A program made the translations under genes and the position numbers. The notes beneath the pieces are model-generated. The model was not told where the DNA came from, made no database searches, and saw only the letters and a list, made by a program, of their open reading frames with translations. 64,000 bases of DNA from Candidatus Deferrimicrobiaceae bacterium (GTDB taxonomy: Bacteria > Desulfobacterota > Deferrimicrobia > Deferrimicrobiales > Deferrimicrobiaceae): positions 544,001 through 608,000 of the forward strand of contig CAWBVY010000006.1 of assembly GCA_963792415.1 (NCBI GenBank). The letters run 5' to 3'. Every line of letters begins with the position of its first letter. The first letter of the stretch is position 1. Positions 42,387 through 62,581 of this stretch are shown here, in pieces.

Positions 42387-43298
42387 TTATCTGGCCGTGG
42401 AAAATATCTGTATCCTGTTATTATCCCTGTCCGCGACGAAGACTTCGCCTTTGTCGTTGACGCACACCTGGCATGGATAGCGGAGTTGCCCCTCTTTCCA
42501 CCCCATGGTCAACTGCTCTCCCTTTAAGGAACCGTCCTGACCGACGATATATATATTGCCGCCGTTTTTATCCGCAAGATAGATGTTCCCGTGCGCATCG
42601 GTGGTGATCGTGGCAGGGAATTTCATCACTTCTTTCATGGATTCCGTCAGAGGGGAAAATTTTCCCGATCCTTTCGCCGCGACATACACCATTGCCTTGA
42701 CGCTGTCGACCAGGAACACATTTTCCTTCCCGTCGACCGCCAGATCGGAAATCACTTCATAACCTGCCGGAAAATCAATGGATTTTAAAAATTTCCCCTC
42801 TGGACTCAGGATCATCACCCTGGCCCCAAAGACGTCGAGAAGGTAAATGGAGTCGTCCTTGCCGATGTCGAAACTTCTAGGGACGACGGTTGAGGGGGGA
42901 GGAGAACCCGCGGGATCCAGCCGCCCCAGGTACTCTCCGGCCGGACTGAATCGAACGATTCGTTTCTGGCGGCCGTCAAGGACAAAGATCTCGCCTTTCG
43001 AATTGGATTGAACCCGCACCGGGAACGACAATTCGGGCGCCCTGATTTCCTTGTCGGGCATCGCATTCCCATTGATCAAGGTAAATTGAACGAGACGCCC
43101 GTTTCCCGAATCCGCCACGAGGATGTGGCCTTTCCCGTCGCAACCTACCCCCTCGGGAGAACGGAATCCCGCTTCCTTGCCGTCGGCATAGACGGACTGG
43201 AAATGCCTCAACTTCAACGCCTCCGCGCCGAAGGACACCTTCGCCAACAACAGCATCGCGACAATGGAGACGATGATTCTCACCAAGGGATTTCCCAT
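42387..43298 (-). CDS. Secreted NHL-repeat beta-propeller
   Basis: Signal peptide; P.G...D..G.I.VAD.GN.R repeats; VADRDNNRIQIF. Confidence 0.88.
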   Translation of the reverse strand: MGNPLVRIIVSIVAMLLLAKVSFGAEALKLRHFQSVYADGKEAGFRSPEGVGCDGKGHILVADSGNGRLVQFTLINGNAMPDKEIRAPELSFPVRVQSNSKGEIFVLDGRQKRIVRFSPAGEYLGRLDPAGSPPPSTVVPRSFDIGKDDSIYLLDVFGARVMILSPEGKFLKSIDFPAGYEVISDLAVDGKENVFLVDSVKAMVYVAAKGSGKFSPLTESMKEVMKFPATITTDAHGNIYLADKNGGNIYIVGQDGSLKGEQLTMGWKEGQLRYPCQVCVNDKGEVFVADRDNNRIQIFSTAR

Positions 43299-43311
43299 CG
43301 AATCACCTCGT

Positions 43312-44568
43312 TTACTGTTTATGACACTGTGTGCACAGGTCCGTGGATGTTGTGAAGGGAACCATCTTCTTGTACGGCGTCCCGTGCGATCGGTGACAAC
43401 TCATGCAATCCACGCTCAAGTTCTTGTTGCGCATATCGCGAACTTTCTCTCCGACGGGGTGCGAAGAATGCTTCCCCCAATTATGGCAACTGCCGCATAG
43501 ATCGTTGACCGAAGGATTCGTCATCAACAGGGGGACATCGGACGCGTGCGGGGAATGGCATGCCGTGCACTCCCCTTTCGCGACGGGCTCATGCTTCGTG
43601 AGGGACGTTGCCTGCCGTTTGATCGTATCGGCGTGACAAGCGCCGCATACGGAAATCATGGGCCCCTTCAGCAGCGCCGCCTCCGAGGACGCATGAGGGG
43701 CATGGCATGCAAGGCAACTGCCCTTGCCGACCAACGCCCAGTGCAACTGGTTCTTCCCGAAGGTTTCGTTGACCATTTTCGAGTGGCATCCCCGGCACAA
43801 TTCATACCCTGTTTTAATGAGCTTGAACGGGGTCGGGGAGGACGGGGATTCATGGCACTGATTGCACATTTTGCTCAGGACAGGACGGTGGACATTCGCG
43901 TACATGATGGCGGCCTTTTCCGACCCGTGGGGGTTGTGGCAGGAAGTACACCGAGCCTTCGCAACCGGGTAACCGCTGTGCTGCCGAATAAACGCGGGTT
44001 TGTCCACCTTGTGGCATTTTGTGCACAATTCGGGCACATCGGTTTTCAGAAGATGCCCGAATTTTTCGGACGCGTGCGGGTCGTGGCAGTTGAGGCACCC
44101 CTTCTCCACGGGCGAGTGTTTGAACTTCGCCTTCGTCACCGCCTGCCCGAGATCCTTGTGACACCCGAAGCAGAGTTCGTTCCCCGCCTTCACGAGGTTC
44201 CCCTTGTTGCCCGCCGCGTGGGGATCGTGGCAACTTGTGCATTTGCCATCGACGACGACCTTGTGCGTGCTCTTCGCTTTTTTCCGCGCAATCCCCTCAT
44301 GGCAGCGGAGGCAGATCCTGGAGGGATCGGCCTCCAGCAATTTTCCGTGGGAGGAAGTGTGGGGATTGTGGCAGCCGGAACAGTCTCCCTTTTTTACAGG
44401 CGTATGAAGGAACGGTCGCTTGAGCTTGTCCTGGAAGTCCACGTGGCAGTTCACGCAGATCTTCCCTTTCGCCCCGGGTTTGAGACGGTAGACGTCGGCC
44501 GGGAACGCCGTGGCGGCGGAAAAAAGGACAAGGAGAAAAAATATCCCAAGAGATACCCTGTACCGCAT
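43312..44568 (-). CDS. Periplasmic 16-heme c-type cytochrome (doubled-CXXCH type)
   Basis: Signal peptide; 16 CxxCH motifs counted; CxxCH-x-PH pattern. Confidence 0.93.
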   Translation of the reverse strand: MRYRVSLGIFFLLVLFSAATAFPADVYRLKPGAKGKICVNCHVDFQDKLKRPFLHTPVKKGDCSGCHNPHTSSHGKLLEADPSRICLRCHEGIARKKAKSTHKVVVDGKCTSCHDPHAAGNKGNLVKAGNELCFGCHKDLGQAVTKAKFKHSPVEKGCLNCHDPHASEKFGHLLKTDVPELCTKCHKVDKPAFIRQHSGYPVAKARCTSCHNPHGSEKAAIMYANVHRPVLSKMCNQCHESPSSPTPFKLIKTGYELCRGCHSKMVNETFGKNQLHWALVGKGSCLACHAPHASSEAALLKGPMISVCGACHADTIKRQATSLTKHEPVAKGECTACHSPHASDVPLLMTNPSVNDLCGSCHNWGKHSSHPVGEKVRDMRNKNLSVDCMSCHRSHGTPYKKMVPFTTSTDLCTQCHKQ

Positions 44569-44585
44569 GGTCGCAGCCTCTCCCT

Positions 44586-46559
44586 TCACTGTTTTTCCCC
44601 GGCGACATGACACTCCCCGCAGGAGCGTGACGCAAACGGCGGGTGCGTGACCTCTTTGAAGAACTTCGGGTCCGTCGATGCATGAGGGGTATGGCAGCTC
44701 ACGCAGTGCATGGCGCTTGCCTCGATGGAGAAGTGGGCTTTCCGGAACGGCCCCCCTTTGAGATCGTGGCACTCCCCGCACAGTGTGAGGACAGGTGTCG
44801 TGAGCAGGGGGGATTCCGGGGAAACGTGGGGCTTGTGGCACCGCAGGCAATCCCTGCGCGCCGGCGAATGCACCTTCTCCCGGTCGAACCTCGCCTTCAG
44901 ATCCTTGTGACAGGTCAGGCACATGTCCGGGCTGCTTGCCAGCAGGAGCTTCTCAAGTTTCGCCTTGTGCGGGCTGTGGCACTTCGTGCACTCCCCTTTC
45001 AGAACCGGAGCGTGCCTGCTCTTGCCCTCCTTGATCCCTTTTTCCAGTTCGGAATGACACTCGGCACAAACCTTGTCCTGCGATTTGACGATCATCCCGG
45101 CGACATTGCTCCCGTGGGCGTCGTGGCAGGCAAGGCACTCCCCTCCCGCAAAGGGGTCGTGGCTCGACCCGCCCTCCGCCTTCTTCATCAGGTCGCCGTG
45201 GCAGTTGGAACAGAGTGCCGGAGGGACCGCTTTCAGGAGATTCTTCTCCTCGGACCCGTGGACGTTATGGCAGGCGTTGCACTGCGCATTGGCGACCGGC
45301 TTGTGCGTGTTCGCCTTGACGAATTTCCCCTCCGCTTCCGCGTGACAGGAGTAGCAGACCTCGTCCATCCGGGCCCGGAACATCCCCTCGAAATTCGAAC
45401 CGTGGGGATTGTGGCAGGACGTGCAGGAATCTTCCATGAAGGGGTCGTGTCGGACCTTCGCGGTCTTGGCCGCCTTTGCCTTCGCGTGGCAGGAATAGCA
45501 GAGGTCCCCTTCCTTCGACAACAGGAGCTTCGGGTTTTTTGCAGCATGGGGACGATGACAGGAGAGGCATCCCTTCCCCCCGGTGGCGGCTGCGTGGGGT
45601 TTTGCCACCTTCTCCCCTTTTCCCTTGTGGCATCCGATGCAGAGCTGGTTCCCCTCCCCGGAAAGGAGGGCCGGATTCTCCGAACCGTGGGGATTGTGGC
45701 AGGAAAGACACGCCCCCTTCCTGAAGGGCTCGTGCTCCACCCCGCCCGCCTTCAGTCCCTTCTCGTCATGGCACTGGTAGCAGAGAGTGCTCCCCTTCTC
45801 CGTGGTTCCGAACGGCTTCGGAGAGGCGGCCGGGTTGTGGCAATCGCCGCAGCCTGCGTCGGCGACGGGTTTATGGGAACTCGTTTTCAGTAGTTTCGGT
45901 TGCGCAGAAGCATGGGGGTTGTGGCACAGGGAGCACGAGGACGTTTCCACAGGATAGCCGCCGTGCGCCTTCTTGAACGCCCCTTTCCCCGGATCGTGAC
46001 AGGAGATACAGAGAGGGATTGCCGCCTTGACCAGCAGGTTCTTTTCGTCGGAAGCGTGGGAGAGGTGGCATGCCTTGCATCCGCCCGTGGTCAAGACTTT
46101 GTGGACGGTTTTCTTTTCGTAGCTTTCCTTATTGTGGCACTGGTAGCAGAGTTCGGGACCTTCCCCCTTCAGGAGGTGGCTTGCCTGGGAGGCATGCGGG
46201 TTATGGCACGTGGTGCATTTCCCCTGCGTCAATACGGTGTGAACGTTGGCCTTGTTCACCCCGATTTTCTCCTTGCTGTGACAGGCGTAGCAGACCTCGT
46301 TGCCGTCTTTCTTGAGGAGCAGCCTCGGAACGACCCCGTGGCGGATATGGCACTCCTCGCATTTCTTCTCCTTGGTCACGGTGTGCACGTATTTCATCGG
46401 GAAATATTGATCGGCGAATTTCTTATGGCAGTCGAGACACTCCTTCTTCGTGAAGGACTGCCTCACGACCGTGGGCCCGCAGGCCAGGAAGAGCGCCCCG
46501 CACAGAAGGAATGCCGCCGCGATGAGAAAGGCCTTTTCCTTTGCGCACACCGTTTTCAT
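44586..46559 (-). CDS. 26-heme c-type cytochrome, probable lipoprotein
   Basis: FLAC lipobox-like site; 26 CxxCH motifs counted. Confidence 0.93.
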   Translation of the reverse strand: MKTVCAKEKAFLIAAAFLLCGALFLACGPTVVRQSFTKKECLDCHKKFADQYFPMKYVHTVTKEKKCEECHIRHGVVPRLLLKKDGNEVCYACHSKEKIGVNKANVHTVLTQGKCTTCHNPHASQASHLLKGEGPELCYQCHNKESYEKKTVHKVLTTGGCKACHLSHASDEKNLLVKAAIPLCISCHDPGKGAFKKAHGGYPVETSSCSLCHNPHASAQPKLLKTSSHKPVADAGCGDCHNPAASPKPFGTTEKGSTLCYQCHDEKGLKAGGVEHEPFRKGACLSCHNPHGSENPALLSGEGNQLCIGCHKGKGEKVAKPHAAATGGKGCLSCHRPHAAKNPKLLLSKEGDLCYSCHAKAKAAKTAKVRHDPFMEDSCTSCHNPHGSNFEGMFRARMDEVCYSCHAEAEGKFVKANTHKPVANAQCNACHNVHGSEEKNLLKAVPPALCSNCHGDLMKKAEGGSSHDPFAGGECLACHDAHGSNVAGMIVKSQDKVCAECHSELEKGIKEGKSRHAPVLKGECTKCHSPHKAKLEKLLLASSPDMCLTCHKDLKARFDREKVHSPARRDCLRCHKPHVSPESPLLTTPVLTLCGECHDLKGGPFRKAHFSIEASAMHCVSCHTPHASTDPKFFKEVTHPPFASRSCGECHVAGEKQ

Positions 46560-46679: not shown

Positions 46680-48341
46680 CTATGACCCCGGTGATTTCAG
46701 GAAGATCTTGACAGGATACGTCTCCCTGAGCTTCGCGGCGTACTCCTCCACCTCCCGCTTCGTTTTCTCACCGGCGACCTTCCCCGCGATCTCCTCCCTT
46801 ACCTTCTCATAGGGCTGCGGCTTCGGTGAGAAGACCTCCCGCAAGGACAGGGCATAGAAGTAACCCTCCGGGCTTTCATAGAGCCTGAACTCCCCCGGCT
46901 TCGCCCCGGAAACGACCTTCTGGAGATCCCCCGGCAAGGCGTCCACAGCCACGAGGTTTCCTTCAAACTTCAACAGTTTCTCCTCTTTGTCCGCCACAAG
47001 TCCTTCCGCGTTCGCGCCGAGCCAGGAAAAGTCCGTGCCCCCACGGAGTTTTCGAATCGCCTCTTCCGCAAGGTCTTTCCTTGAAAAAACGAGACTGTTG
47101 ATCCTCATCATCTCGGGGGAGGAGAATTCCGCGATATGCTTTTCGTAATAAGACGTTAAATCCCCTTCCTCCAGTCGGATCCCCGGGCGGATGACCTTCT
47201 GTAGGAATACCCCGAAAAGGACCGAGTTCCGGTACTCCCCGACCATCTCCTTGTACGCCTCGGACTTGTCGATCCCTTGCCGAAGCGCCTCCGCGCGGAC
47301 GGCGCGCCTGTCGAGGATCGGATCGAGAACATCGAACTTTCTGTTGTTGATCCGTTTTTTCGCCGCGGCCATTTCCGTCCCGTGGAAATATTTCTTCCGG
47401 ATCGCCTCGCTCAACTCCCCCACGGTAACCGGTTCGCCCCCCTTGATCTCGGCGACCACGCGCCGGTCGTTCAGCAGCGCCTCGAACCCGGGGGTTTCCG
47501 CCTCGTAATCCAGACCGTCAAGGACCTCTTGGTTCACGTTCACATATTCCTTCCTCAAGTCGGCAATGAACTGGAATTTTACTTCGGTCTCCCTGGATTT
47601 CAAGGCGGTAACCTGTGCCCGCTCCCTCGCGCCCGCATCTTCCGGGAAACGGATTTCCTCCAGTTTCAGGATGACGAATCCCGGCTTACTCCTGATGATG
47701 GGGCTCATGGCGCCGACTTCCATTCGCGATACCGCTTTCCTTATCTCCGGAAGGAGTTGTTCCTGTTTCAGATACTCTCCTTCCCCTGCCCCCTTCGCGA
47801 TCCCTTCCGCGGTCGCTCTCTTCACGATCACATTGAAGTCCTGTCCCGACTTGATCTCCGCCTCGATCCGTTTCGCATCCTCCTCTTTTCCGAACACCAG
47901 AGACAGCAACTTGTATTCCTTCACGGACTCCTTGTAAATCCTGTCCGCTTCGTTTTCATCCGCGCGGACCCCCTTTGTCTGCTGCATCAGCAACACCGCC
48001 ATCAGAGCGCCGCGGGAGTAACTGTCCACACTTTCCTTGACCTCCGGCAATTCGTCGAGTCCGATATTTCTGGCCTCCAGGAGGATAAGCCGGATGTTGA
48101 TCAAACGATTCAGGATCTCCGTATAATCCACTTTTCCGACCCGTTTACCCGCGGCCATCTCGGCATGCCCCATCCCGAGCGCCTGGTTCAACTCCTCCAC
48201 CGTGATCGGGTCCCCGTTGACCGTGGCGACGGCCTCTTTCCCGCCGATCCGGGGGAGCGGCGGTTCCCCGGCGAACCCGGTAGCCGCCATCAGGAGAAAT
48301 GTCGCGATTAGAATGTTGATCGTCTTGAATACCCGTCTCAT
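46680..48341 (-). CDS. SurA/PpiC-type periplasmic chaperone with two parvulin-like modules (OscH-like)
   Basis: Signal peptide; VATVNGDPIT..EL and a repeated VAEIKG.PVTV.EL; EA..I...I..G.DF; degenerate rotamase segments. Confidence 0.8.
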   Translation of the reverse strand: MRRVFKTINILIATFLLMAATGFAGEPPLPRIGGKEAVATVNGDPITVEELNQALGMGHAEMAAGKRVGKVDYTEILNRLINIRLILLEARNIGLDELPEVKESVDSYSRGALMAVLLMQQTKGVRADENEADRIYKESVKEYKLLSLVFGKEEDAKRIEAEIKSGQDFNVIVKRATAEGIAKGAGEGEYLKQEQLLPEIRKAVSRMEVGAMSPIIRSKPGFVILKLEEIRFPEDAGARERAQVTALKSRETEVKFQFIADLRKEYVNVNQEVLDGLDYEAETPGFEALLNDRRVVAEIKGGEPVTVGELSEAIRKKYFHGTEMAAAKKRINNRKFDVLDPILDRRAVRAEALRQGIDKSEAYKEMVGEYRNSVLFGVFLQKVIRPGIRLEEGDLTSYYEKHIAEFSSPEMMRINSLVFSRKDLAEEAIRKLRGGTDFSWLGANAEGLVADKEEKLLKFEGNLVAVDALPGDLQKVVSGAKPGEFRLYESPEGYFYALSLREVFSPKPQPYEKVREEIAGKVAGEKTKREVEEYAAKLRETYPVKIFLKSPGS

Positions 48342-48379: not shown

Positions 48380-49528
48380 TCACTTCCACATCATTCCTCT
48401 CACGATCCGCGACATCTCGGAGGCCATCGCATTTGCCGTACGCTCCCTGCCCATGTCGAAGAACCAGACGCCGTCCGTCCCCCGGTTGTAACTCTTGGAG
48501 GACCACCCCACCTCCCGCCCCTTTCTCTCCATCACCTCCAGGGAGAAATCGACGACGGGAGCGCCGTCGGCGCCCTGATAATCCTGGTAATCCATCACCT
48601 TTCCCGTGACAAGCAGGTCCGCGTTCAACGCGTTCCAGGCAATGTCGGCCTGCGCAAGGGAGATGCCGTCCTCCATGATGATCCGAAGGGCCAGAAGCTC
48701 CTTCCGCACGACCCCGGGCTCGATGACCTCGATGTTCCCCACCTTCGTCATCTCCCGAACAAGGTGCAGCTGCATGATCTCCCCCGCATACTTCCTGAGG
48801 CTCTCATTGAAGAAGGGGATGACCGCCACGGTATGCCGGGCCCGGGGGTCGAATGCTGGAGAGCGGTAGATTATTTTCGGGCGGAACTTCTTCCTCTTCT
48901 CCTCCGCGGAATCCCTGCCCCCCTTTTCCGACAGGCTTCCCGCAAGGGAGACCGAAAGGGAGCGCAGCGCCTTGTCCCGGAGGACGACGGGATTCTCGAT
49001 CAGGCCGAGATCCAGGATCCCCGGAGCGTCGTCCCCCGCGAGCCCCACGCTGTCCATCCACAAAATGACCGGGGACTCCTCTGTCGAAACCAACCGTGAG
49101 GTCAAGGCGATCTTGGGTGGAATCGTGTCATTGTAGAGCTCCAGCGAGGTGATGAGGACGGATGCGGACCCCGTCTCTTCTCTGATGGCCTTGGCCGTGG
49201 CCCCGTCGATCCCGCCGATGTACCGTAAACGGCGCCTTGCCATGAATTTCTCGAGGAGTTCCTCTTCAAGGACGTTGAAGCCCCGCGCCTGCAGACCCTC
49301 GATCAACGCCTTACGGATATCCCTCAGGGGGGCGGCGGATCCGCTCAGGTTTTCCACCGGCAGTATGGCGATCGGATGGGTATAAATCGATTTGTTGGAA
49401 ATATTCTGCGGGAGCGTTGACGGCGCCTCCGACACTCCTTTCCTGGTCGCGGAGCACCCCGAAAGGAAAACCAGGCCAGTCACCAATATGAGGATCGTCC
49501 TATTTGTAAAGCTTGTTGATGAGGTCAA
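48380..49528 (-). CDS. Lipoprotein with two CsgG/GNA1162-like domains (OscG-like)
   Basis: Lipobox LSGC; IAILPVENLS and VAVIPFFNES duplicated domains. Confidence 0.75.
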   Translation of the reverse strand: MTSSTSFTNRTILILVTGLVFLSGCSATRKGVSEAPSTLPQNISNKSIYTHPIAILPVENLSGSAAPLRDIRKALIEGLQARGFNVLEEELLEKFMARRRLRYIGGIDGATAKAIREETGSASVLITSLELYNDTIPPKIALTSRLVSTEESPVILWMDSVGLAGDDAPGILDLGLIENPVVLRDKALRSLSVSLAGSLSEKGGRDSAEEKRKKFRPKIIYRSPAFDPRARHTVAVIPFFNESLRKYAGEIMQLHLVREMTKVGNIEVIEPGVVRKELLALRIIMEDGISLAQADIAWNALNADLLVTGKVMDYQDYQGADGAPVVDFSLEVMERKGREVGWSSKSYNRGTDGVWFFDMGRERTANAMASEMSRIVRGMMWK

Positions 49529-50084
49529 CGACCGCCTCTTCCGTGACGATGTTCATCGGTCTGCCACCCCCTCCGAACAGCCGGTCCGTCGTGCTGACCC
49601 CGCCTTTTGTCGAGGATGCCGACCAGACGACCTTTCCGGTCTTGACCTCGAACATCATCATGCTAAAGGATACCAGGTTCGCAGACACCGAGCCGGACCG
49701 GACCTCTCCGTACTCCTTGACCACACCGGCCATCACCGCATCCACGCCGAGAACGCCTCCCAGTCTCTTGATCTCCTCCTCGGAAGGAGCCGACCGGTCG
49801 ATGGGCTGCGCCCTGGAAATCCCCCGCGCGACCTCTCCGGTGGGGAGGAGATAGAGGCCTCCCGTAGCCATGAGCATGTTCATATATACATCCCGCACCC
49901 GGTCCGCCGCTTTCTCGTCCCTGGTCAGATTCGCGAACGGAAGCACCGCGACTTTCCGGATGGATCCGAAATCCATGTTCGGATCACGGTACGTGTTCGG
50001 ATCACGGTGCCTGGCCGGACCGGTACCGGCACAGGCGCCGACACAGAGAAGGATAAGAACGGCAAGGATGTTTTTCGTGGTCAC
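49500..50084 (-). CDS. CsgG/GNA1162-like lipoprotein (OscF-like)
   Basis: GGAG RBS and GTG start; VGAC lipobox; KVAVLPFANLT, LGVDAV..G.V.EY, TGKVVWS. Confidence 0.78.
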   Translation of the reverse strand: MTTKNILAVLILLCVGACAGTGPARHRDPNTYRDPNMDFGSIRKVAVLPFANLTRDEKAADRVRDVYMNMLMATGGLYLLPTGEVARGISRAQPIDRSAPSEEEIKRLGGVLGVDAVMAGVVKEYGEVRSGSVSANLVSFSMMMFEVKTGKVVWSASSTKGGVSTTDRLFGGGGRPMNIVTEEAVVDLINKLYK

Positions 50085-53752: not shown

Positions 53753-53865
53753 GAGGCCCCTTCCCTTCTCCTGTCCCCGGCGGAAATCCACGAAAGGACA
53801 GATCCATTGCCATGGCGTTGCGACCTATGCACTTCTATCAGAACTTCGTCCGAGGCTCAACAATG

Positions 53866-53897
53866 AGGAAGGGCCGGCAGTTCCTGCCGGCCCCTCC
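53866..53897 (-). terminator. Strong hairpin downstream of omcS (terminator or mRNA-stabilising stem)
   Basis: GAGGAAGGGCCGGCAG-TTC-CTGCCGGCCCCTC; no clear U-tract. Confidence 0.55.
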
Positions 53898-53947
53898 CCT
53901 TGCTTCACCCAGCGAGGGAGAATACCCCCCTCGCTATATTTCCCCGA

Positions 53948-55204
53948 TCAGTCTTTCGCGTGGCACTTGTTGCAGAGGGACCGCTGGTACGAGCCGTAGT
54001 GCATCGTCGTGTCGTTGTACGCCTTCGTCGTCTCCGCCACCGTGCGGCCCTGGGCGTACTTCGCCGACGCCGCTATCGTAGATGGGGAGTCCGTCCCGGG
54101 CCACACGCCGTCGACGGCGATGAATTCATTCCCGGTGGCGTTCCACCGCGCCATGTAGTCCCATCCGGTGGCGTGCGCCCGGTGGCACGACAGGCACATC
54201 ACCCTGTCGCTGGTCGCCGGGCCGGTGGTTACCGTGGTCGGATTCGCGAGGGTTTTGAGAGTTGTATAATTGCTGGTGTTGTTCGACTGGAAGGGAACGA
54301 TCGAATCGTAGGATGTCGCTACGGTTCCCGTCATGTCGCCGCTGCCTTTATACGCGTTGTAGTTGGCCACTACAGCGGCACTCAGCCCCTGGTTGACGGG
54401 GTGCGTCATTTTGGAAGAGGTCCCGCTGTGCATATCGGGATGGCAGGCCGCGCACCAGTCGGAAGTTCCAGCGCCATACGCAACACGGGTGGCCGAGACC
54501 GCCTCGGTACGATTGTACGTGGACGGCGAGGAGGCGTTGAAAACGGCGGAAAAAGTCTTGCCGCCCGGACCGGCCGTGGAACCGTCCCCGCGCAGGATCC
54601 GGTACGCGCCGACTGCCTGGCCGGCCGCGGGTTCCACGCTGTTCCAGTAGGAGCCGGAGGCGATGATGGGGCCGCCGGTCACGCCGAACGTGGGAGCGGC
54701 ATCGGTCCCCGTTCTCCGCAGCTTGCCGTGCTGGTCGTGGCAGCTGGTGCAGCTGAACAAGGTCGAATCCATGTCCCCGCCCGGAGCGGTCGTGTTCTGG
54801 ACGTCCGCAATATAACCGAAATCGGCCGCGATGATGTTGTGTCCCTTCTTTTCGGCGAAACTGGTCTCGGTGGTTCCAGAGCGCGGAGACCAGGTGTACC
54901 CTTTCTTCAGCCACCCGAAATCACCGCCCGGGGTCCGGTTTCCCGGAGGGGTCCCGACGGGCATGTCCGCATCGGGGGTCGCGATGTGGTAGCTGGAGGC
55001 ACCGGACGCTCCGTGGCAGCTGAGGCAGGTGGAGCTGGCGTCTGTATTCGCCAGGAGAGACGATGTCGATTTCGCATCGTGGATGTTGTGGCACCCCATG
55101 CACTCGGCGACGCCGCCCGAATGGAAGGCGAGCGCCATCCCGCTGAGCCCCACGGTGATCAGGGCCGCGGCAAAGACGATAAAACCGATTCGTAAGCCTT
55201 TCAT
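53948..55204 (-). CDS. omcS: OmcS-family hexaheme nanowire cytochrome
   Basis: Signal peptide then FHSGGVAECMGCHNIH, TPGGDFGW.KK, GHNI, SGSY, TRVAYG, CLSCHRAHA, YQRSLCNKCHAKD; 6 CxxCH. Confidence 0.92.
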   Translation of the reverse strand: MKGLRIGFIVFAAALITVGLSGMALAFHSGGVAECMGCHNIHDAKSTSSLLANTDASSTCLSCHGASGASSYHIATPDADMPVGTPPGNRTPGGDFGWLKKGYTWSPRSGTTETSFAEKKGHNIIAADFGYIADVQNTTAPGGDMDSTLFSCTSCHDQHGKLRRTGTDAAPTFGVTGGPIIASGSYWNSVEPAAGQAVGAYRILRGDGSTAGPGGKTFSAVFNASSPSTYNRTEAVSATRVAYGAGTSDWCAACHPDMHSGTSSKMTHPVNQGLSAAVVANYNAYKGSGDMTGTVATSYDSIVPFQSNNTSNYTTLKTLANPTTVTTGPATSDRVMCLSCHRAHATGWDYMARWNATGNEFIAVDGVWPGTDSPSTIAASAKYAQGRTVAETTKAYNDTTMHYGSYQRSLCNKCHAKD

Positions 55205-55219: not shown

Positions 55220-55306
55220 CCTCTCCGGCAGCCCGGCCATCCGTTGCACATGGATCCGTCGGCTTTGTGTCCCCGCCTTTCGGTCGGGTTTACCCTTTTC
55301 GGAGGA
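55220..55306 (-). ncRNA. GEMM-I (cyclic-di-GMP-I class) riboswitch upstream of omcS
   Basis: CUCCGAAAAGGGUAAACCCGACC-GAAA-GGCGGGGACACAAAGCC...GGCCGGGCUGCCGGAG follows the GEMM-I consensus (GYAAAC, GNRA loop, GACRCAAAGC, P1 closure). Confidence 0.9.
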
Positions 55307-55438: not shown

Positions 55439-56389
55439 TCATTCGTAGGAGACCCGGAAGACGCTGATCCCTCTTTTCCTTGCCTGGCTGACGAACACGC
55501 GGCCGGCTTTATCGACCACCAATTCATTCGGGGCGATCAGGTCGCCCGGCCCGGTACCCCGTTGGCCGAACTGCGCCTGGAACTTGAACTCCTTGTCGAA
55601 AACCGACACCGCGGAGCGCAGGGTGTCAGTCACGTAGATATCCCCCCTGCCGTCGACCGCGATCCCCGACACGATGTTGAACCTCCCGGGGAGGTTGCCG
55701 GAGGTCCCGAACGAGGAGAGCCGTCTGTCGGGAGAGAGCTTGAAGACTTTGAACAGCGTGGGCACGGTAAAGAACAGGTTCCCCTCCGGGTCCACGGTGA
55801 TGCCGGCGATGTTGTATTCGGCCCCGGGTTTCTGCTCGAAATCGACAAGGAGGGGGGCGATGTCGAACCCCTCCTGAAAAACACCGCTTGCATCCGTCAC
55901 CACCACCTTCTTCGCGACCAGGTCCGCAAGGTACAGTTTCCCGTTCCCGGAAAGGAGCCTCCCGGGGAAGATCCGGTCGAACTCGCTGGGGAGATTCCGG
56001 ATTTCGATCCCGGCCTGCGGCTCCCCCCGGTAGTCGCACCGCGTCACCCGGAACCGGTCCCCCGCGCGGGAAAGGATGAGGATGTTGCCGTCGCTCTCGA
56101 CGGCAACATCGATGAAACCGCCGATATCCAGGTCATCCCCGAACCGGTACACCTCCATCCCGCTGCTGTTGAAGACCGCCACGGAGTCGCCGGTGACCAC
56201 GTAGATTTCGCCTCTCTCCGGGTCGATGGATTGCTTGACCCAACCATACGGAACGGTTCCTGAAAAATTCGAGAGGCTGTACAGATAGGTTGCTTTTACC
56301 CCTGCAACGGACGAGGAAGGAGCGCATATCAACAGCAGGAGCAGTGCCGCCGCGAGACCTCCGATCGATGAAGAGCGAACCCGTATCAT
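55439..56389 (-). CDS. Secreted NHL-repeat beta-propeller upstream of omcS
   Basis: Signal peptide; GIAVD..G.IYVTD, FG..G.GPG.L..P repeats. Confidence 0.87.
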   Translation of the reverse strand: MIRVRSSSIGGLAAALLLLLICAPSSSVAGVKATYLYSLSNFSGTVPYGWVKQSIDPERGEIYVVTGDSVAVFNSSGMEVYRFGDDLDIGGFIDVAVESDGNILILSRAGDRFRVTRCDYRGEPQAGIEIRNLPSEFDRIFPGRLLSGNGKLYLADLVAKKVVVTDASGVFQEGFDIAPLLVDFEQKPGAEYNIAGITVDPEGNLFFTVPTLFKVFKLSPDRRLSSFGTSGNLPGRFNIVSGIAVDGRGDIYVTDTLRSAVSVFDKEFKFQAQFGQRGTGPGDLIAPNELVVDKAGRVFVSQARKRGISVFRVSYE

Positions 56390-56401
56390 GCCGAAAGGCA
56401 G

Positions 56402-56417
56402 AGCAACAGGCATGCCA
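56402..56417 (-). promoter_or_regulatory. Sigma-54 promoter for the NHL-omcS operon
   Basis: TGGCAT-GCCTG-TTGCT, near-consensus -24/-12. Confidence 0.75.
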
Positions 56418-56685: not shown

Positions 56686-57984
56686 GTGGCGTTAACATCC
56701 TGCCCCAGGGGTAGTTCCCTTGGTTTCTGGATCTTCCTTCTTGCCGCCGCTACGGTGGGAAATCCCGCTTCCGCCTTCCACTCGGGAGGGACCGGTGAAT
56801 GCACCGGGTGCCACGACATGCACCAGGCGCAATCGTCCCCGGAAGGGACGGATAACAATGTCGCGCTGCTGGCAGGGAAGGACCCGGGATCCGTCTGCCT
56901 GGAGTGTCACCAGAGGGCCGGACAGAAGCAGCCCGATTCCCACCTCGTGGCAACCGCAGACCCGGACATGCCCGCCGGAATGCCACCCGTTCAGCTCACA
57001 CCTGCAGGGGATTTCGGCTGGGTAAAGAAAAGTTACCGCTGGGGGACCGGGGGGGGGGAAGACGGAGGGTACAGCCCCGGAGAGCGTCACGGTCACAATA
57101 TCGTCGCGGACGGATACCGGTTCTCCCCCGACGCGGAACGGGTCACGGCTCCTGGAGGGACCTACCCGTCGATCAGCCTTTCCTGCATCAGCTGTCACGA
57201 CCCGCACGGGAAGTACAGGCGGTTTGCCGGCGGTTCCATCGGAACCGTGGGCGCACCGATCCAGGCATCGGGGTCCTACGACTCGAGCCCGGACCCTTCC
57301 GGGGACCGTTCCGTCGGGGTCTACAGGCTCCTCGGGGGGAAAGGGTACAGGACGTCCTTGTATGATGGCGAGCCATTCACCGCCGACCCTCCCTCCGCGG
57401 TATCCCCCGCGACGTACAACCGCAAGGAAGATGCGGGCGACACGCGGGTCGCCTACGGCGCCGGTTTCTCGGAGTGGTGCGCCAACTGCCATCCCCGGTT
57501 CCTGTCCGGCGGAGGCACGGGCGCGAAGAGCCACCCCGCGGGAACCACCGTAAAACTTTCGCGGAACGTAATCGCGAATTACAACTCCTACGTGGCCTCG
57601 GGGAATCTCTCGGGGAGCAGTTCCACGTCGTATACCTCCATGGTTCCGTTCGAGGCCGGTACGTCGGATTACGGGCTATTGAAAAGGATGGCGAAGAGCG
57701 ACGGATCCGCGGCCGCGGGTCCCGGGTCCCAGGCCAACGTGATGTGCCTCTCCTGCCACCGGGCCCACGCCTCCGGGTGGGACCACGGGGGCCGGTGGAA
57801 CCTGAAGTCGGAATTTCTCGTCTACAACGGGCAGTTCCCGGGAATCGACGACGGGACCGTGCCGGCAAGATTCTCCCAAGGGCGCACGGGCGCCGAAACC
57901 CGGAAGGCGTATTACGATCGACCGCCGACCGCCTATGCCACCTACCAGCGTTCGCTCTGCAACAAGTGCCACGCGAAGGATTGA
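56686..57984 (+). CDS. Second OmcS-family hexaheme cytochrome (OmcT/OscC-like paralog), divergently transcribed
   Basis: GGAG RBS and GTG start; FHSGGTGECTGCHDMH...GDFGWVKK...CISCHDPHGKYRRF...YQRSLCNKCHAKD; 6 CxxCH. Confidence 0.9.
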   Translation: MALTSCPRGSSLGFWIFLLAAATVGNPASAFHSGGTGECTGCHDMHQAQSSPEGTDNNVALLAGKDPGSVCLECHQRAGQKQPDSHLVATADPDMPAGMPPVQLTPAGDFGWVKKSYRWGTGGGEDGGYSPGERHGHNIVADGYRFSPDAERVTAPGGTYPSISLSCISCHDPHGKYRRFAGGSIGTVGAPIQASGSYDSSPDPSGDRSVGVYRLLGGKGYRTSLYDGEPFTADPPSAVSPATYNRKEDAGDTRVAYGAGFSEWCANCHPRFLSGGGTGAKSHPAGTTVKLSRNVIANYNSYVASGNLSGSSSTSYTSMVPFEAGTSDYGLLKRMAKSDGSAAAGPGSQANVMCLSCHRAHASGWDHGGRWNLKSEFLVYNGQFPGIDDGTVPARFSQGRTGAETRKAYYDRPPTAYATYQRSLCNKCHAKD

Positions 57985-58135: not shown

Positions 58136-58148
58136 TTCATTCATGGAC

Positions 58149-58829
58149 ATGCCCCTGCAAATTCAGCCAAGAATCCTTGTCGTCGACGACGACAAGCTGA
58201 TTTGCTGGGCTCTTGAGAAGGAATTTGCAGGCTTGGGCCTTGTCACCCGGGTTGTCGAAAACGGGGAGGAGGCGCTCGCGGAACTTCGCAGGCAACCTTA
58301 CGACATCGTCTTCCTCGACATCCACCTTCCCGATGCGAACGGGATCGAACTCCTCCGCGACATCGATGCGATTTCCCGGGATGTGAAGATCATCCTCATG
58401 AGCGGCGACGCCACCGAGGCGAACCGGGAAAGAGCGTTCGCAAGCGGCGCGCTGCAATTCCTCGAAAAGCCGCTCGATCTCCCGGAAATCCACAGCATCC
58501 TGAAAAGCACCCTGGGAAAACACGCGCATAAGAGGAAACACCCGCGGCACATCTGCCGCATCCCGCTCCGAATCTCGGTCCTGGATCCTTCTCCCGAAGA
58601 AACCCAGTACGATCTAAAGAACCTGAACGGCACGGCGGCCGACTTCGGATCCGGGGGGCTGCGGCTTCACATGGAATATCCGCTGCGTGTGGGACAGCGT
58701 GTGCGCGCGCAGGCGGAAGCGGACAATGAACGGTTCAGGAGGTTCGTTCCCCCCGAATCCCCCGCACGGGTGGTATGGGTCACCCCGGCGCAGGATGGGG
58801 TCATGGCCGGTCTGCAGTTCGTGAACTGA
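58149..58829 (+). CDS. Response regulator receiver fused to a PilZ-like domain
   Basis: ILVVDDD, FLDIHLPD, EKP; then RKHPR (RxxxR), DFGSGG (DxSxxG-like), ARVVWV, GLQF. Confidence 0.82.
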   Translation: MPLQIQPRILVVDDDKLICWALEKEFAGLGLVTRVVENGEEALAELRRQPYDIVFLDIHLPDANGIELLRDIDAISRDVKIILMSGDATEANRERAFASGALQFLEKPLDLPEIHSILKSTLGKHAHKRKHPRHICRIPLRISVLDPSPEETQYDLKNLNGTAADFGSGGLRLHMEYPLRVGQRVRAQAEADNERFRRFVPPESPARVVWVTPAQDGVMAGLQFVN

Positions 58830-58830
58830 T

Positions 58831-60219
58831 CTACTCCAGCCCGAACTTCTTCACCTGGTACCGCAGGGAGTCGTAGGTAATCCCGAGGAGCTTCGCCGCA
58901 AGCGTCTTGTTTCTCCCCGCTTTCTCGAGCGCCTGGAGGATCAGGGTCCTCTCCACCTCCTCCAGGGAGAGCCCCTTGTCGGGGATCGTCAGCCTCGGGG
59001 CTGCCTTCGTCTCGGCCTCCCCCTTGCAGTGCAGGATCTCCCCGGGAAGGTGTTCCGGCCGGACGATCTCGTCGCTTTCCAGGACGACGATCCGCTCGAC
59101 GACGTTCCGCAGTTCCCGGACATTCCCCGGCCAACGGTAGGCGACCAGCATCTCCTCCGCTTCGGGGGAGATATCCTTCAGCGCCATCTTGTTGTACTTC
59201 TCCGTGTAGCCCCGCAGGAAGTGTCGCGCGAGCAAGGGAATGTCCCCTTTCCTCTCCCGCAGCGGCGGCAGATGCAGTGAAAAAGCGGTGAGCCGGTAGT
59301 AGAGGTCGACGCGGAACTCTCCCGCCGCCACCGCCCCCTCGAGGTCCCGGTTCGTTGTGGCGAACACCGTGGCATCGATCGGAAAATCCTGTCGTCCTCC
59401 GATCCGCCGGAACTTCCGTTCCTCGATCACGCGGAGGAGCTTCGCCTGCAGGTCCAGACGCATCTCCCCGATCTCGTCGAGGAGGATCGAGCCGCCGTCC
59501 GCCTGCGCGAAGATCCCCTTCTTCTCGGTCTTGGCGTCCGTGAACGCCCCCTTCTCGTGTCCGAAAAGCTCGCTTTCGATCAACGGCTCCGGCAGGGCGG
59601 CGCAGTTGATCCCGAGGAACGGGGCGAAGGAGGCGAATTCGGACGGGTGCATCAGGTGGTGGATGTGCCGCGCGAAGACCTCCTTCCCGGTGCCGCTCTC
59701 GCCCGTGATGAGGACCAGTGGAACTCCGGCGTCGGCGAATTTTTTACACTTCTCCTTCAGCTTGTAGACCTTGTTCGTCTTCCCGATGATCTCCTGGTCG
59801 GCCAGGTTTAAACTGACCCTCCGGAGGTATTCGACCTCGAGCTTCAGGTTTCCTTTCTCGATGATCCGCCCGACGACGATCTTCACCTCGTCAAGGTTGA
59901 ACGGCTTCGTCAGGTAGTCGGCGGCGCCGATCTTCATCGCCTTGACAGCCGTTTCCGCCGTGTCGTCCGAAGTCAGCATCACCACCTGGGTGGAAATCCC
60001 CTGCCCGACGATCTCCCCGAGGATGTCGATTCCGTCCCGCCCCGGGAGTTTAATGTCGAGCAGCACGATGTCGGGGGAGAATGCCCGGATCCTGTCGAGG
60101 ACGCCCTCGGGGTCGCTCACCGCGTGGACGTCGTATCCGTCCCCGCGCAGCGCCCGCTCGAGCATGGAGACGATCAGTTCGTCGTCGTCCAGCAGGAAGA
60201 CTTTCCCCTTGGTCTTCAT
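58831..60219 (-). CDS. Sigma-54-dependent response regulator (NtrC family)
   Basis: REC, GESGTGKE, ESELFGHEKGAFTDA, LDEIGE, WPGNVREL, Fis-type HTH. Confidence 0.95.
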   Translation of the reverse strand: MKTKGKVFLLDDDELIVSMLERALRGDGYDVHAVSDPEGVLDRIRAFSPDIVLLDIKLPGRDGIDILGEIVGQGISTQVVMLTSDDTAETAVKAMKIGAADYLTKPFNLDEVKIVVGRIIEKGNLKLEVEYLRRVSLNLADQEIIGKTNKVYKLKEKCKKFADAGVPLVLITGESGTGKEVFARHIHHLMHPSEFASFAPFLGINCAALPEPLIESELFGHEKGAFTDAKTEKKGIFAQADGGSILLDEIGEMRLDLQAKLLRVIEERKFRRIGGRQDFPIDATVFATTNRDLEGAVAAGEFRVDLYYRLTAFSLHLPPLRERKGDIPLLARHFLRGYTEKYNKMALKDISPEAEEMLVAYRWPGNVRELRNVVERIVVLESDEIVRPEHLPGEILHCKGEAETKAAPRLTIPDKGLSLEEVERTLILQALEKAGRNKTLAAKLLGITYDSLRYQVKKFGLE

Positions 60220-61664
60220 CCCGCCGCCCCTTCCGCCTTGACGGGGAGCAGGATGGTGAACAGCACCCCACCGCCGGGCCGGTTCGCGACGGTGATCGTG
60301 CCGTCGTGCTGCTCGATCATCTGGTGGGAGAGCGCCAGCCCCAGCCCGGTCCCCTTCGGTTTTGTCGTGAAGAACGGCTGAAAGACCTTGCCGATGAGGT
60401 CTTCGCGGATCCCGCTCCCTGTGTCGGAAACCTCGATCCGGATCGTCTTTCCGTCCTCTTCCAGGCAGGTCCGGACGCCCAGCTTGCCTCCGCGGGGCAT
60501 CGCGTGAAGGGCGTTGAGGAACAGGTTCAGGAAGACCTGCTGCAGCAGGGTGGGGTCGGCCTGCATCGGAGGAAGTTCTCCAAACTCCTTTACGATCTCG
60601 ATATTCCCGGATCCGCCCGACCCGCCGGCCCGGTGCTTCAGGTGGAAGGCGAGGGTCGTGTTCAGCGTCTGGTTCACGTTGACCGGTTCCAGCCGAGGCT
60701 TCTGCGGCTTGGCGAAGTTGAGGAAGCTCTTCATCAATCCTTCCAGCTGGGTGATCTCGGCGACCACCTTCTGAAGGACCCCCTTGTCCTCCGGGGAGAT
60801 GTACGCTTCTTCGGAGAGGACGCTCATCGCGACCTTGATCCCCGCCATCGGGTTCTTGATCTCGTGGGCCAGCCCCGCCGCCAGCTCCCCGACCACCACC
60901 ATCTGCTCCGCCCGCTGCATCTTCTGCATCTGTTCCTTCAGGGAGAGGGACATTTCGTTGAATGCGTCGGCCAGTTCGCCGAATTCGTCCTTCAGGCGAG
61001 GAACCCGGTGGTCCAGTTCCCCTCCCTTCAATTTCCGGGTGGACTCGACCAGGACCTTGACGGGGCGGGTCAGCCCCGAGATGAAGACGAACCCAAACAA
61101 TGCCGAAACCAGGGGGCCCAGCGACACGAGCCCGTACAGGTAGTATTTCGTGCGCTCGATCTCGTTCATCGCTTTCTGCGTGCTTTCCCCGAGCCTGGAG
61201 GTGGTGAAGGCGATCACTTCACGGACGTCCTCGATCAACTGTTCCCCGATCCGGAAGGCGGCATCCTCCTCCGCAGCGCGCCTGGAGGCGTTCGCCCGGA
61301 TGGTCAACACCCTGCTCAGGGCGTCCTTGTATTTCTCCGTCTGCTGCTTCAACGCGCTCAGCCGCTCCATCCCTCGCGGGGAATGGTGGCAGTCGAAGCA
61401 GGTGTCGATGATTCTCCCCATGCCCCTGACGTGTTTTACGATGGTATCGAAGCTTCTTTCATACTGCGTATCCTTGAGCGTGAGATCCGCCTGCACTCTC
61501 TTGATCTCCAGCAGGTAGTGCTCCCGCAGGATCTCCACCTGGTGAAGCGTGATCAGCCGGTCCAGGCTGACCGTGGCGGTACGGATGGTGCGGATGACGT
61601 ACACGCCGACCAGGAGGAAGATGGCGGTGTAGATCGCCAGCCCGATGACGACCTTCCGTTTCAT
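60216..61664 (-). CDS. Sensor histidine kinase with a periplasmic CxxCH heme motif
   Basis: CFDCH between two TMs; HAMP (DEFGELADAFN); AHEIKNP; FTTK..GTGLGL. Confidence 0.92.
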   Translation of the reverse strand: MKRKVVIGLAIYTAIFLLVGVYVIRTIRTATVSLDRLITLHQVEILREHYLLEIKRVQADLTLKDTQYERSFDTIVKHVRGMGRIIDTCFDCHHSPRGMERLSALKQQTEKYKDALSRVLTIRANASRRAAEEDAAFRIGEQLIEDVREVIAFTTSRLGESTQKAMNEIERTKYYLYGLVSLGPLVSALFGFVFISGLTRPVKVLVESTRKLKGGELDHRVPRLKDEFGELADAFNEMSLSLKEQMQKMQRAEQMVVVGELAAGLAHEIKNPMAGIKVAMSVLSEEAYISPEDKGVLQKVVAEITQLEGLMKSFLNFAKPQKPRLEPVNVNQTLNTTLAFHLKHRAGGSGGSGNIEIVKEFGELPPMQADPTLLQQVFLNLFLNALHAMPRGGKLGVRTCLEEDGKTIRIEVSDTGSGIREDLIGKVFQPFFTTKPKGTGLGLALSHQMIEQHDGTITVANRPGGGVLFTILLPVKAEGAAG

Positions 61665-62581
61665 CAGTCGTTCCTGTAATCGTAGGTGGCCAGGTCCAGG
61701 TGGATGTCTTCCGCGTACTCCTGGATGATGTGGTACTCCTCGTTCCGGGTTTCGATGAACCTCCGCGCGCCGAACCGCTCCAGCACCTTTTTTCCGTCCG
61801 GGTCCAGGTTCATCTTGAGGAGTACATCCTTCAACCGGTCCCGCACCGACGCGTCGATATCCTTCCTGAGGGCGAGGGCGTTTTCCGGCACGTCGGGGGA
61901 CCTCTCGAGGACGATCAACTCTTTCATGATCCGCGGGTTGGCCTTCGCGAGCCGCTCGAACACCGTGTTCTTCGCCGCGCCGATATCGGCCTTCCGTTCG
62001 AGAACGTCGGAGATGGCGTCCTCGTGCGTCCCGGCGAAATAGGCCTCCTTCAGGTATCTCTTGTAATTCGATATCCCGTTTTTATGGAAATATTCGAGCG
62101 GGAGGAGGTACCCGGCCGTGGTCGCCTTGTCCACGAAGGCGAACCGTTTCCCCTTCATGTCGCGGGCGGTCCGGATGGAGCTGTCTTTCCGGACGAAGAT
62201 CAGCCCGTGGTAGGTGGAGGTGTTGTCGGGCGCCACCGGCCGCGCGAGGACCTCCACCCCGACCTTCGCGTGGGCCAGCGTGTAGGTGAAGCTGCCGAAA
62301 AAGGCGCCGTCAAGGCCGGAGGAGTTGAAATTGTCGACGATGTTCCCGTACCGGGGGAGGATCATCAACTTCATCTTCGTGGCGGTTTTCCGGTGGAGAT
62401 ACTCCATCAAAGGCTCGTACCGCTCCATCTGCTTGAAGATGTTCTGCTCCGGGATCAGGCCGATCCGCAACTCCTTGACGGGGGGCTTCTCCGCGGGGGC
62501 CGGCGGCGCCTGCGGGGAACAGGCCGCGAGGAGCGGAAGGCCCAGCACGAGCAGGGTGCAGGCGATCGGTCGGTTTCGCAT
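61664..62581 (-). CDS. PhnD-family (phosphate/phosphite/phosphonate-type) periplasmic binding lipoprotein
   Basis: LAAC lipobox; LRIGLIPE, Y.G.I.VRKDS, GKRFAFVD..TT.GYL.P, GTHED; stop overlaps the kinase start (TGATG). Confidence 0.85.
   Translation of the reverse strand: MRNRPIACTLLVLGLPLLAACSPQAPPAPAEKPPVKELRIGLIPEQNIFKQMERYEPLMEYLHRKTATKMKLMILPRYGNIVDNFNSSGLDGAFFGSFTYTLAHAKVGVEVLARPVAPDNTSTYHGLIFVRKDSSIRTARDMKGKRFAFVDKATTAGYLLPLEYFHKNGISNYKRYLKEAYFAGTHEDAISDVLERKADIGAAKNTVFERLAKANPRIMKELIVLERSPDVPENALALRKDIDASVRDRLKDVLLKMNLDPDGKKVLERFGARRFIETRNEEYHIIQEYAEDIHLDLATYDYRND

Follow-up and report, generated by a model that had tools for sequence, protein, structure and literature searches.

The window analysed here is a 64,000 nt stretch of DNA (positions 544,001–608,000 of contig CAWBVY010000006.1, assembly GCA_963792415.1), and all coordinates below are window positions. 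The region from 39295 to 62581 is probably an orthologous copy of the osc (omcS-companion) cytochrome-nanowire gene cluster, carried by an uncultured Deferrimicrobiota/MBNT15-like bacterium with a small genome. It is collinear, gene for gene, with the omcS region of Geobacter sulfurreducens, and so belongs to the published osc system, which is the proposed means by which Geobacter builds and exports its OmcS nanowires. That system is already known, and the present locus is a real further member of it, found in a little-studied phylum. The osc cluster of G. sulfurreducens (GSU2493–GSU2507) was reportedly described by Shen et al. in 2025, in Cell Chem Biol 32:239, under a title that calls it widespread. 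Given that title, and the occurrence of collinear loci across several phyla, the novelty of the locus is small.

Collinearity with the omcS region of G. sulfurreducens

The reference genome (G485) is taken to be that of G. sulfurreducens, as one of its open reading frames (ORFs) scores 938 bits over residues 1–407 of the 6EF8 chain, and its 17 GEMM-I riboswitches equal the count published for that species (17, as given in passages of PMC6456294). It has four OmcS-like genes. A preliminary description of this DNA had proposed a resemblance to the G. sulfurreducens omcS/osc region, and this was borne out by tblastn searches with the window proteins, which found equivalent genes in the same order and on a single strand, at 35–57% identity. 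The synteny check likewise showed the window to be collinear with the omcS/GSU2501–GSU2493 region plus the sigma-54 regulator and kinase. Locus tags are those in passages of PMC12977616 and PMC10599522, and were assigned to individual ORFs by order. Along the G. sulfurreducens region, identities are 42% (NHL propeller), 50–56% (16-heme cytochrome), 57% (26-heme cytochrome), 37% (peptidyl-prolyl isomerase, PPIase), 48% (larger lipoprotein), 55% (small lipoprotein), 35% (barrel) and 47% (YVTN propeller). Next in order are the hexaheme at the GSU2501 position, those at the OmcT and OmcS positions, a further NHL protein (38%), the sigma-54 regulator (42%) and the kinase (32%, in the core only).

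Homologs of GSU2501 are always followed by an eight-gene block, GSU2500–GSU2493, that is linked to OmcS maturation and secretion (passages of PMC12977616). By tblastn, the window has an eight-gene block behind a hexaheme gene that is collinear with GSU2500–GSU2493, and it encodes a PPIase chaperone, channel-like outer-membrane components and a beta-propeller, as judged by Pfam matches (Rotamase, YNCE) and by the folds of the barrel and lipoproteins. In the Osc lettering we take the PPIase to be OscH, the YVTN propeller OscD and the channel-like outer-membrane components OscEFG.

The likeness to the G. sulfurreducens osc cluster covers the succession of NHL protein, hexaheme(s), YVTN propeller, barrel, two lipoproteins, PPIase, 26-heme cytochrome, 16-heme cytochrome and NHL protein, in equal order, as well as the presence of a GSU2502 homolog, an adjoining sigma-54 regulator and kinase, and a GEMM-I riboswitch before the first OmcS gene. 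There are also differences. The G. sulfurreducens cluster has three hexaheme genes within the operon, whereas here there are two, the second being encoded on the other strand together with a REC-PilZ protein. The GSU2502 homolog lies at the far end and is frameshifted here, but sits between omcT and GSU2501 in G. sulfurreducens. The kinase sensor has a CxxCHH motif, compared with the Cache_1 domain annotated for GSU2507 (passages of PMC10599522), and no counterpart was seen in G. sulfurreducens of the sigma-54 promoter motif that this locus shares with 32 others. The phylum of the host also differs from that of G. sulfurreducens.

In the reference genome itself, the homolog of the 16-heme cytochrome (L062:1224-2484) aligns in two pieces, in different frames and 4 nt apart, and a single frame of 446 aa holds only 10 CxxCH motifs. 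The gene at the GSU2494 position of G485 may contain a frameshift or be recoded.

The OmcS-family cytochromes

Two hexaheme cytochromes are encoded: OmcS-1 within the operon (53948–55204, minus strand) and OmcS-2 divergent from it (56686–57984, plus strand). Both match the 6EF8 chain (residues 1–407) over its full length, OmcS-1 with residues 27–418 (E 3.4e-98) and OmcS-2 with residues 31–432 (E 1.9e-118), and the sole solved protein matched by both is OmcS of G. sulfurreducens (6EF8/6NEF). The signature ends that had been noted earlier are present in both, with a mature start of FHSGG..C.GCH..H and an end of YQRSLCNKCHAKD. The likeness to OmcS thus spans the whole chain and includes six CxxCH motifs, six more histidines (His16 among them) and the mature ends FHSGG and CNKCHAKD. 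The window proteins differ from it in being 50–52% identical (51.6% and 50.4% for the two) and in falling into clades of their own. OmcS-1 and OmcS-2 are 49.7% identical to each other, and no third copy is present in the genome.

An OmcS-family alignment and tree of 76 rows was made (three partial rows were dropped before tree building; maximum likelihood, quick search, SH-aLRT support). The 12 cysteine and 12 histidine heme ligands are retained in OmcS-1 and OmcS-2 and in at least 97% of the 76 rows; in mature OmcS numbering the histidines are 13, 51, 144, 243, 332 and 404 (of the CxxCH motifs) and 2, 16, 110, 147, 257 and 335. In the 6EF8 filament, His16 of one subunit is presumably the ligand of heme 5 in the neighbouring subunit. 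OmcS-1 is placed in a clade of 11 rows (support 100), the other ten of which, nine from Nitrospirota and one unclassified, are hexahemes heading these operons. OmcS-2 belongs to a separate clade of 14 rows (support 99). G. sulfurreducens OmcS and OmcT make up another 11-row clade (support 98), and the GSU2501-position protein is placed elsewhere. Orthology to GSU2504, rather than to its paralogs OmcT, OmcJ or the GSU2501 type, is not borne out by this tree; by this placement both window hexahemes are OmcS-family members, and neither can be called a GSU2504 ortholog.

Filament formation by OmcS-1 or OmcS-2 may be expected from this homology. A complex prediction of two mature OmcS-2 copies, made without hemes, gave an uninformative score of 0.01. 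Among 8000 candidates scored, 4078 were OmcS-2 homologs at E ≤ 1e-10. In two runs of one study, the libraries of which are recorded as metatranscriptomic but are flagged as probably DNA, there are contigs identical to OmcS-1 and to no other part of the locus. A true RNA-seq run from a second study gave only pieces that were 90–99% alike, 22 of the 32 at 90–95%.

Gene content and extent of the locus

Every gene listed in the preliminary description was found, and Pfam/NCBIfam matches identified two NHL propellers, a YVTN/YncE propeller, a PpiC-type PPIase, a GNA1162/LpoB-like lipoprotein, a sigma-54 response regulator and a HAMP histidine kinase. The list had missed the REC-PilZ gene that follows the plus-strand OmcS-2 gene. 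Its count of 55 CxxCH motifs for 42387–62581 was reproduced by a six-frame scan: 16 in 43335–44457, 26 in 44621–46439 and 6 in 53974–55102 (all minus strand), 6 in 56800–57958 (plus strand) and 1 at 61400 (minus strand). The remainder of the window has four.

In the direction of transcription, the minus-strand genes are those for a PhnD-like protein, kinase, sigma-54 regulator, NHL protein, OmcS-1, YVTN propeller, barrel, two lipoproteins, PPIase, 26-heme cytochrome, 16-heme cytochrome and a second NHL protein. OmcS-2 and then REC-PilZ are encoded on the plus strand between the sigma-54 regulator and the first NHL gene. Signal peptides are visible in the translations, and lipoboxes in the 26-heme cytochrome, both lipoproteins and the YVTN propeller.

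The first operon gene (55439–56413, minus strand; GSU2505 position) specifies an NHL/SBBP beta-propeller with Pfam matches to SBBP, DUF5128 and NHL, and is the one with 38% identity to G. sulfurreducens (L063:1198-2106). The eight genes behind OmcS-1, all on the minus strand, begin with that for a YVTN/YncE-type beta-propeller lipoprotein (52358–53791; GSU2500 position; lipobox FSGC; YNCE E 1.1e-13, TIGR02276 E 9e-32), followed by those for the outer-membrane beta-barrel (50152–52350; GSU2499 position), the small lipoprotein (49500–50084; GSU2498 position; lipobox VGAC) and the larger lipoprotein (48380–49528; GSU2497 position; lipobox LSGC). The periplasmic PPIase chaperone (46680–48341; GSU2496 position) is SurA/PrsA-like, with matches to Rotamase_2 (E 1.3e-22), Rotamase and SurA_N. 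The two long cytochromes c are a 26-heme lipoprotein (44586–46559; GSU2495 position; lipobox LFLAC; Paired_CXXCH_1 E 2e-148) and a 16-heme periplasmic protein with a signal peptide (43312–44568; GSU2494 position; Paired_CXXCH_1 E 1.7e-89). Last of the block is a secreted NHL-repeat beta-propeller (42387–43298; GSU2493 position; Pfam NHL E 1.6e-19), the counterpart of L062:305-1216.

The locus had been described as complete at 42387–62581; the genes named there stand, but the left limit does not. The GSU2502-position ORF of G. sulfurreducens, between omcT and GSU2501, is 1057 aa long and hemeless. Its residues 35–640 align to 42331–40523 (frame −2, 52%) and, after a gap of 4 nt, residues 642–1044 align to 40518–39307 (frame −3, 44%), so that the locus reaches about 39295. 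The counterpart in the window (39295–42331, minus strand), a frameshifted homolog of the GSU2502-like MFS/spermidine-synthase membrane protein (NCBIfam MFS_SpdSyn E 1e-27), is split near 40519–40522 into the ORFs 40436–42319 and 39295–40395, between which the Spermine_synth profile is divided. Homologs of both ORFs are present in 7–8 further osc loci.

The stretch from purC to the osc genes (31052–39265) encodes a second fused MFS/spermidine-synthase-like protein (995 aa, reading frame intact), two TPR proteins and a GT2 glycosyltransferase. The second MFS/spermidine-synthase-like, TPR and GT2 genes are also found inside the corresponding island of a congener (G007, described below), and this group may be a surface-glycan or glycosylation module that travels with the locus.

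The barrel and its lipoproteins

The protein put forward earlier as an outer-membrane barrel has 732 aa and no Pfam match, and is indeed modelled as a large beta-barrel (pLDDT 84.2), with about 28 long strands (11 + 17 by DSSP) and an inserted domain at residues ~262–428. The insert has only a sub-threshold match, to F5/8 type C (E 0.05). Homologs of the barrel numbered 451 at E ≤ 1e-5 among 8000 candidates scored.

The two lipoproteins had been described as CsgG-like. For the larger one (382 aa) the superfold holds but the CsgG family does not. It has no Pfam match at E 0.01, to CsgG or otherwise, and its AlphaFold model (pLDDT 83.4) consists of two tandem alpha/beta domains, PelC/LpoB/TolB-N-like, for which PelC (5t0z/5t10) is the best Foldseek match (E 6.5e-9, TMt 0.70–0.77). 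Weaker matches follow to GNA1162, TolB-N, CsgG (E 3.8e-5, TMt 0.42) and LpoB. The small lipoprotein matches GNA1162-like proteins (PF05643, E 1e-6) and LpoB (E 3e-4). Assignment of the lipoproteins to the CsgG family was rejected for these reasons.

The likeness to PelC extends to gene context, the larger lipoprotein gene adjoining that of an outer-membrane barrel which would export a polymer; in the PelBC exporter (5t0z, 5t10, 9h80) a PelC ring lies under the PelB barrel. Unlike PelC, the protein encoded here has its domain tandemly duplicated and a second, single-domain lipoprotein alongside, and identity to PelC is 16–20%. The cargo would be a protein filament rather than the exopolysaccharide of PelBC, and a ring is suggested by analogy only.

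Regulatory features

A c-di-GMP-I (GEMM-I) riboswitch aptamer lies at 55224–55304 (minus strand). It matches RF01051 over the full model (1–87), scoring 56.1 bits where the gathering score is 35 (E 2.7e-8), and ends 19 nt before the OmcS-1 ATG, with a Shine–Dalgarno sequence between. The variant model RF03167 scores 56.5 bits, below its cut-off of 59. Position 20, in the numbering assumed here, is G, which we take to be the c-di-GMP type. The match is the only one in the whole genome, compared with the 17 GEMM-I riboswitches of G. sulfurreducens, and in G007 the GEMM-I riboswitch is likewise the sole one. In each of five other genomes checked, including G007 and G. sulfurreducens (omcS), a GEMM-I riboswitch immediately precedes the first OmcS-family gene. 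Among another 19 loci, 10 have one at the equivalent position, and of the nine that do not, two lack the upstream DNA. The element therefore resembles the omcST riboswitch of G. sulfurreducens in its Rfam family and in its place directly before the first OmcS-family gene. The OmcST riboswitch is known experimentally to respond to cGAMP and c-di-GMP (PMC6456294, in passages summarising Kellenberger 2015 and Nelson 2015).

A sigma-54 (−24/−12) promoter-like motif, TGGCATGCCTGTTGCT, is found at 56417–56402 (minus strand), with 9 of 11 consensus positions matched and the GG and GC in register. In 33 of 44 loci the NHL homolog is preceded by a motif matching at least 9/11, compared with a background rate of 0.027 per 390 nt over these loci as a whole; another two, with upstream DNA too short to assess, were left out of this count. 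As the motif overlaps the ATG at 56413 of the first NHL gene, this gene probably starts later, and the ATG at 56389 is likelier. An activator suited to such a promoter is encoded nearby (58831–60219, minus strand; REC-AAA+-Fis HTH; Sigma54_activat E 7e-59), so that, as sequence motifs, both the sigma-54 activator and the −24/−12 element at the operon are present. No sigma-54 motif fitting the start codon was seen upstream of OmcS-2 or REC-PilZ, no conserved block emerged when the divergent intergenic region was aligned with that of G007, and a scan for sigma-70 promoters and terminators gave nothing above shuffles.

The histidine kinase (60216–61664, minus strand; HAMP, HisKA, HATPase_c) has the sequence CFDCHH at residue 89, in a periplasmic sensor between two hydrophobic segments. 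The CxxCHH motif is conserved in all 13 loci with an alignable sensor domain, down to 35% identity. The sensor domain has no Pfam or PDB sequence match, and the leads from the protein atlas are four-helix-bundle sensor families. The G. sulfurreducens kinase aligns to it in the core only. Encoded with the kinase is a PhnD-like periplasmic binding protein (61664–62581, minus strand; Phosphonate-bd E 2.2e-59).

Following the OmcS-1 stop codon are two long GC-rich hairpins (53800–53947, minus strand). The 150 nt after the stop have a minimum free energy of −89 kcal/mol and a z-score of −5.94, with none of 200 shuffles as stable, and the first 130 nt after the last hexaheme gene gave z ≤ −3 in 30 of 48 loci, compared with 2 of 100 random windows from these loci (mononucleotide shuffles throughout). 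The OmcS-2 to REC-PilZ spacer is unstructured (z −0.65). From their position, the hairpins after OmcS-1 are read as a putative intra-operon attenuator or stabiliser.

The REC-PilZ gene (58143–58829, plus strand) specifies a single-domain response regulator (Response_reg E 1.2e-25; PilZ E 2.2e-8) that is a probable c-di-GMP receptor. Its PilZ domain has the RxxxR motif (RKHPR), and the second motif reads DFGSGG, which deviates from what we take to be the usual second c-di-GMP motif, D/NxSxxG.

Host and distribution

The host had been suspected of being not obviously Geobacter but perhaps a Deferrimicrobium/MBNT15-type organism, and placement by purA agrees that it is not a Geobacter: the nearest named relatives of PurA are labelled 'Deltaproteobacteria', 'Desulfobacteria' and 'Candidatus Deferrimicrobiaceae' (four rows), at 82–89% identity. 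Candidatus Deferrimicrobiaceae belongs to the phylum Candidatus Deferrimicrobiota. The host genome (2.84 Mb, 11 contigs) is rated 100% complete, and about 25 of its other ORFs have several CxxCH motifs. Four adjacent ORFs at C4:649698-657906, with 11, 11, 9 and 16 CxxCH motifs, resemble 'cluster 1' of the MBNT15 genome SHF-111 as presented in passages of PMC9386147. That paper, the founding genome study of the phylum, predicts, in the same passages, dissimilatory iron reduction for the phylum from cytochrome counts, and a term search of its main text returned no 'nanowire', 'hexaheme' or 'NHL'.

A genome scan with the barrel gene recovered 51 loci in metagenome-assembled genomes (MAGs) labelled Nitrospirota, Thermodesulfobacteriota, Acidobacteriota, Rokubacteria, Syntrophorhabdales and others. 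In 40 of these all detected core genes are in canonical order on one strand, 16 having the full ten-gene set and many others being cut by contig ends. The kinase and sigma-54 regulator are upstream on the operon strand in 12 of the 51 loci, and a REC-PilZ homolog is opposite the operon strand in 13; a PhnD-like gene precedes the kinase in many. No Geobacter-named record was among the 51 loci or the best 120 OmcS-2 homologs.

Close to the host the locus is patchily distributed. Of 18 other species in the genus, one was found to have the barrel gene, as were none of seven members of the sister family and none of five more distant relatives. When 301 genomes from the phylum were searched with a profile, 24 matches reached E ≤ 1e-20, only eight of them below 1e-100. 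Congener G002 is collinear with 2747–17781 and 24792–30805 of the window (~90% amino acid identity) and then, 53 nt later, with 62664–63908. Since its purC and ABC transporter genes are just 53 nt apart, 31.9 kb is missing there, and the segment 30806–62663 (~31.9 kb), which holds the whole locus, is present or absent among congeners. The same purC/ABC adjacency is found in G011, while in G017 a kinase (82%) and PhnD-like gene (81%) adjoin the ABC gene at a contig end. In G007 an island of equal architecture, including OmcS-2 and REC-PilZ, occupies the purC/ABC site. Compared with the window, its regulators are 75–83% identical, its OmcS-2, at the equivalent place, 70% and its flanks 87–90%, but its structural operon, from NHL to NHL, only 39–61%. 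This pattern fits structural-block replacement or deep allelic divergence at a fixed site. A GC profile gave no clear island signal for the locus itself.

The island-flanking ABC transporter gene of G011 (L071:148-1472) aligns in two frames, 84% and 95% identical, and is possibly disrupted. A second segment of the window, 17782–24791 (~7 kb), is also absent from G002. It includes a low-GC stretch (0.47 at 20–22 kb), overlapping ORFs at 23.6–24.6 kb match rve-integrase (E 9.6e-17) and phage-integrase (E 2.8e-9), and it ends beside a tRNA-Ala (24848–24923). It looks like a small integrated mobile element. Elsewhere, four CxxCH motifs in one frame at 7346–7628 (plus strand; Paired_CXXCH_1 E 3.4e-7) probably mark the gene for a small tetraheme cytochrome. 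It lies a short way upstream of a further sigma-54 regulator/HAMP kinase pair at ~9.3–13.0 kb.

Alternative explanations

Several points weigh against the locus being a functional nanowire system of the osc type. It is known here from genes alone, and neither paralog is sister to G. sulfurreducens OmcS in the 76-row tree. According to passages of PMC12977616, wire formation is known for OmcS alone, and authentic nanowire subunits are not recognisable across genera by sequence. No sigma-54 motif was found at three G. sulfurreducens places examined, at the threshold of at least 9/11, and with this and the Cache sensor of its kinase the regulatory reading is not transferable from the model organism. 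In Foldseek, the solved structure ranking first for the barrel model is that of MtrB from the Mtr complex (6r2q_B, E 1.5e-9), the sheath of a porin–cytochrome conduit. With two very long multiheme cytochromes in the operon, this would suit an arrangement in which the barrel sheaths the 16- or 26-heme cytochrome, as in MtrB–MtrA, and the OmcS homologs are monomeric or small-oligomer terminal reductases held at the surface by the propellers. Such a conduit seems unlikely, as the TM-score to MtrB is low (0.36–0.39), with TonB-dependent receptors and the PapC/FimD pilus ushers coming next and scoring similarly. His16, the presumed inter-subunit ligand, is conserved in both paralogs and in 97% of the rows, and the PelC-like lipoproteins, PPIase and post-subunit hairpins resemble polymer-export operons.

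Even as an osc locus, its filaments or surface cytochromes could serve electron uptake (oxidation of Fe(II) or a cathode, or inward interspecies transfer) and not Fe(III) reduction. Multiheme chains are reversible in principle, and the nearest relatives of OmcS-1, along with many of the collinear loci, come from MAGs of Nitrospirota, Rokubacteria and Acidobacteriota, which are not classical iron reducers. The iron reduction predicted for the phylum (passages of PMC9386147) argues against uptake, as do the ~25 other multi-CxxCH ORFs, including the four-gene block like 'cluster 1', although no search was aimed at Cyc2/MtoA-type markers; we regard this direction of electron flow as quite unlikely. 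The frameshift in the GSU2502 homolog could be decay or an assembly error, and raises the question of whether the locus is a decaying, non-functional accessory island of this strain, in line with its absence from G002 and G011 and the rarity of the barrel gene in the genus. However, the other 15 genes have intact frames and their products bear signal peptides or lipoboxes, no heme ligand has been lost, the riboswitch and promoter motifs are intact, and one lone frameshift may be an error where the assembly is of the MAG type, making decay highly improbable. The osc assignment is retained as the preferred reading.

Proposed mechanism and implications

If the locus is an osc nanowire cluster, OmcS subunits would be exported by Sec, loaded with heme and folded with the aid of the PPIase, and would then pass through the lipoprotein ring and barrel, to polymerise head to tail once outside. 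Electrons would cross the periplasm by way of the 26- and 16-heme cytochromes and so reach the filament base. The PhnD-like protein, the heme-c sensor kinase and the sigma-54 activator may drive the −24/−12 promoter before the operon, the c-di-GMP-I riboswitch abutting the OmcS-1 start codon would provide a further level of control, and the hairpins after OmcS-1 may set an excess of subunit over machinery. REC-PilZ is co-encoded with OmcS-2. The motifs and their comparative conservation are observed, and it is from these that we infer a function in three-layer control.

A broader proposal, tentative and in our view rather doubtful, is that outside Geobacter the osc locus is a self-contained, exchangeable nanowire cassette with its own circuit, consisting of a heme-c redox sensor kinase acting on the sigma-54 promoter, a dedicated riboswitch and a PilZ receptor. 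The structural operon would be block-swapped at a fixed site while the regulators stay, and the two diverged paralogs would build two filaments or a primed heteropolymer. The block-swap idea arises because structural genes are 39–61% identical between congeners and regulators 75–83%.

The locus is a concrete candidate for how the abundant Deferrimicrobiota (MBNT15) bacteria of sediment and peat reach mineral acceptors. The conserved regulatory architecture (heme-c kinase, sigma-54 promoter, riboswitch, hairpin) hints at the sensing behind nanowire production, and the gain, loss or replacement of the cassette among strains, all at one site, hints at how the system spreads between phyla. To specialists, the regulatory layers and the within-genus variation of the cassette are possibly of more interest than the locus itself.

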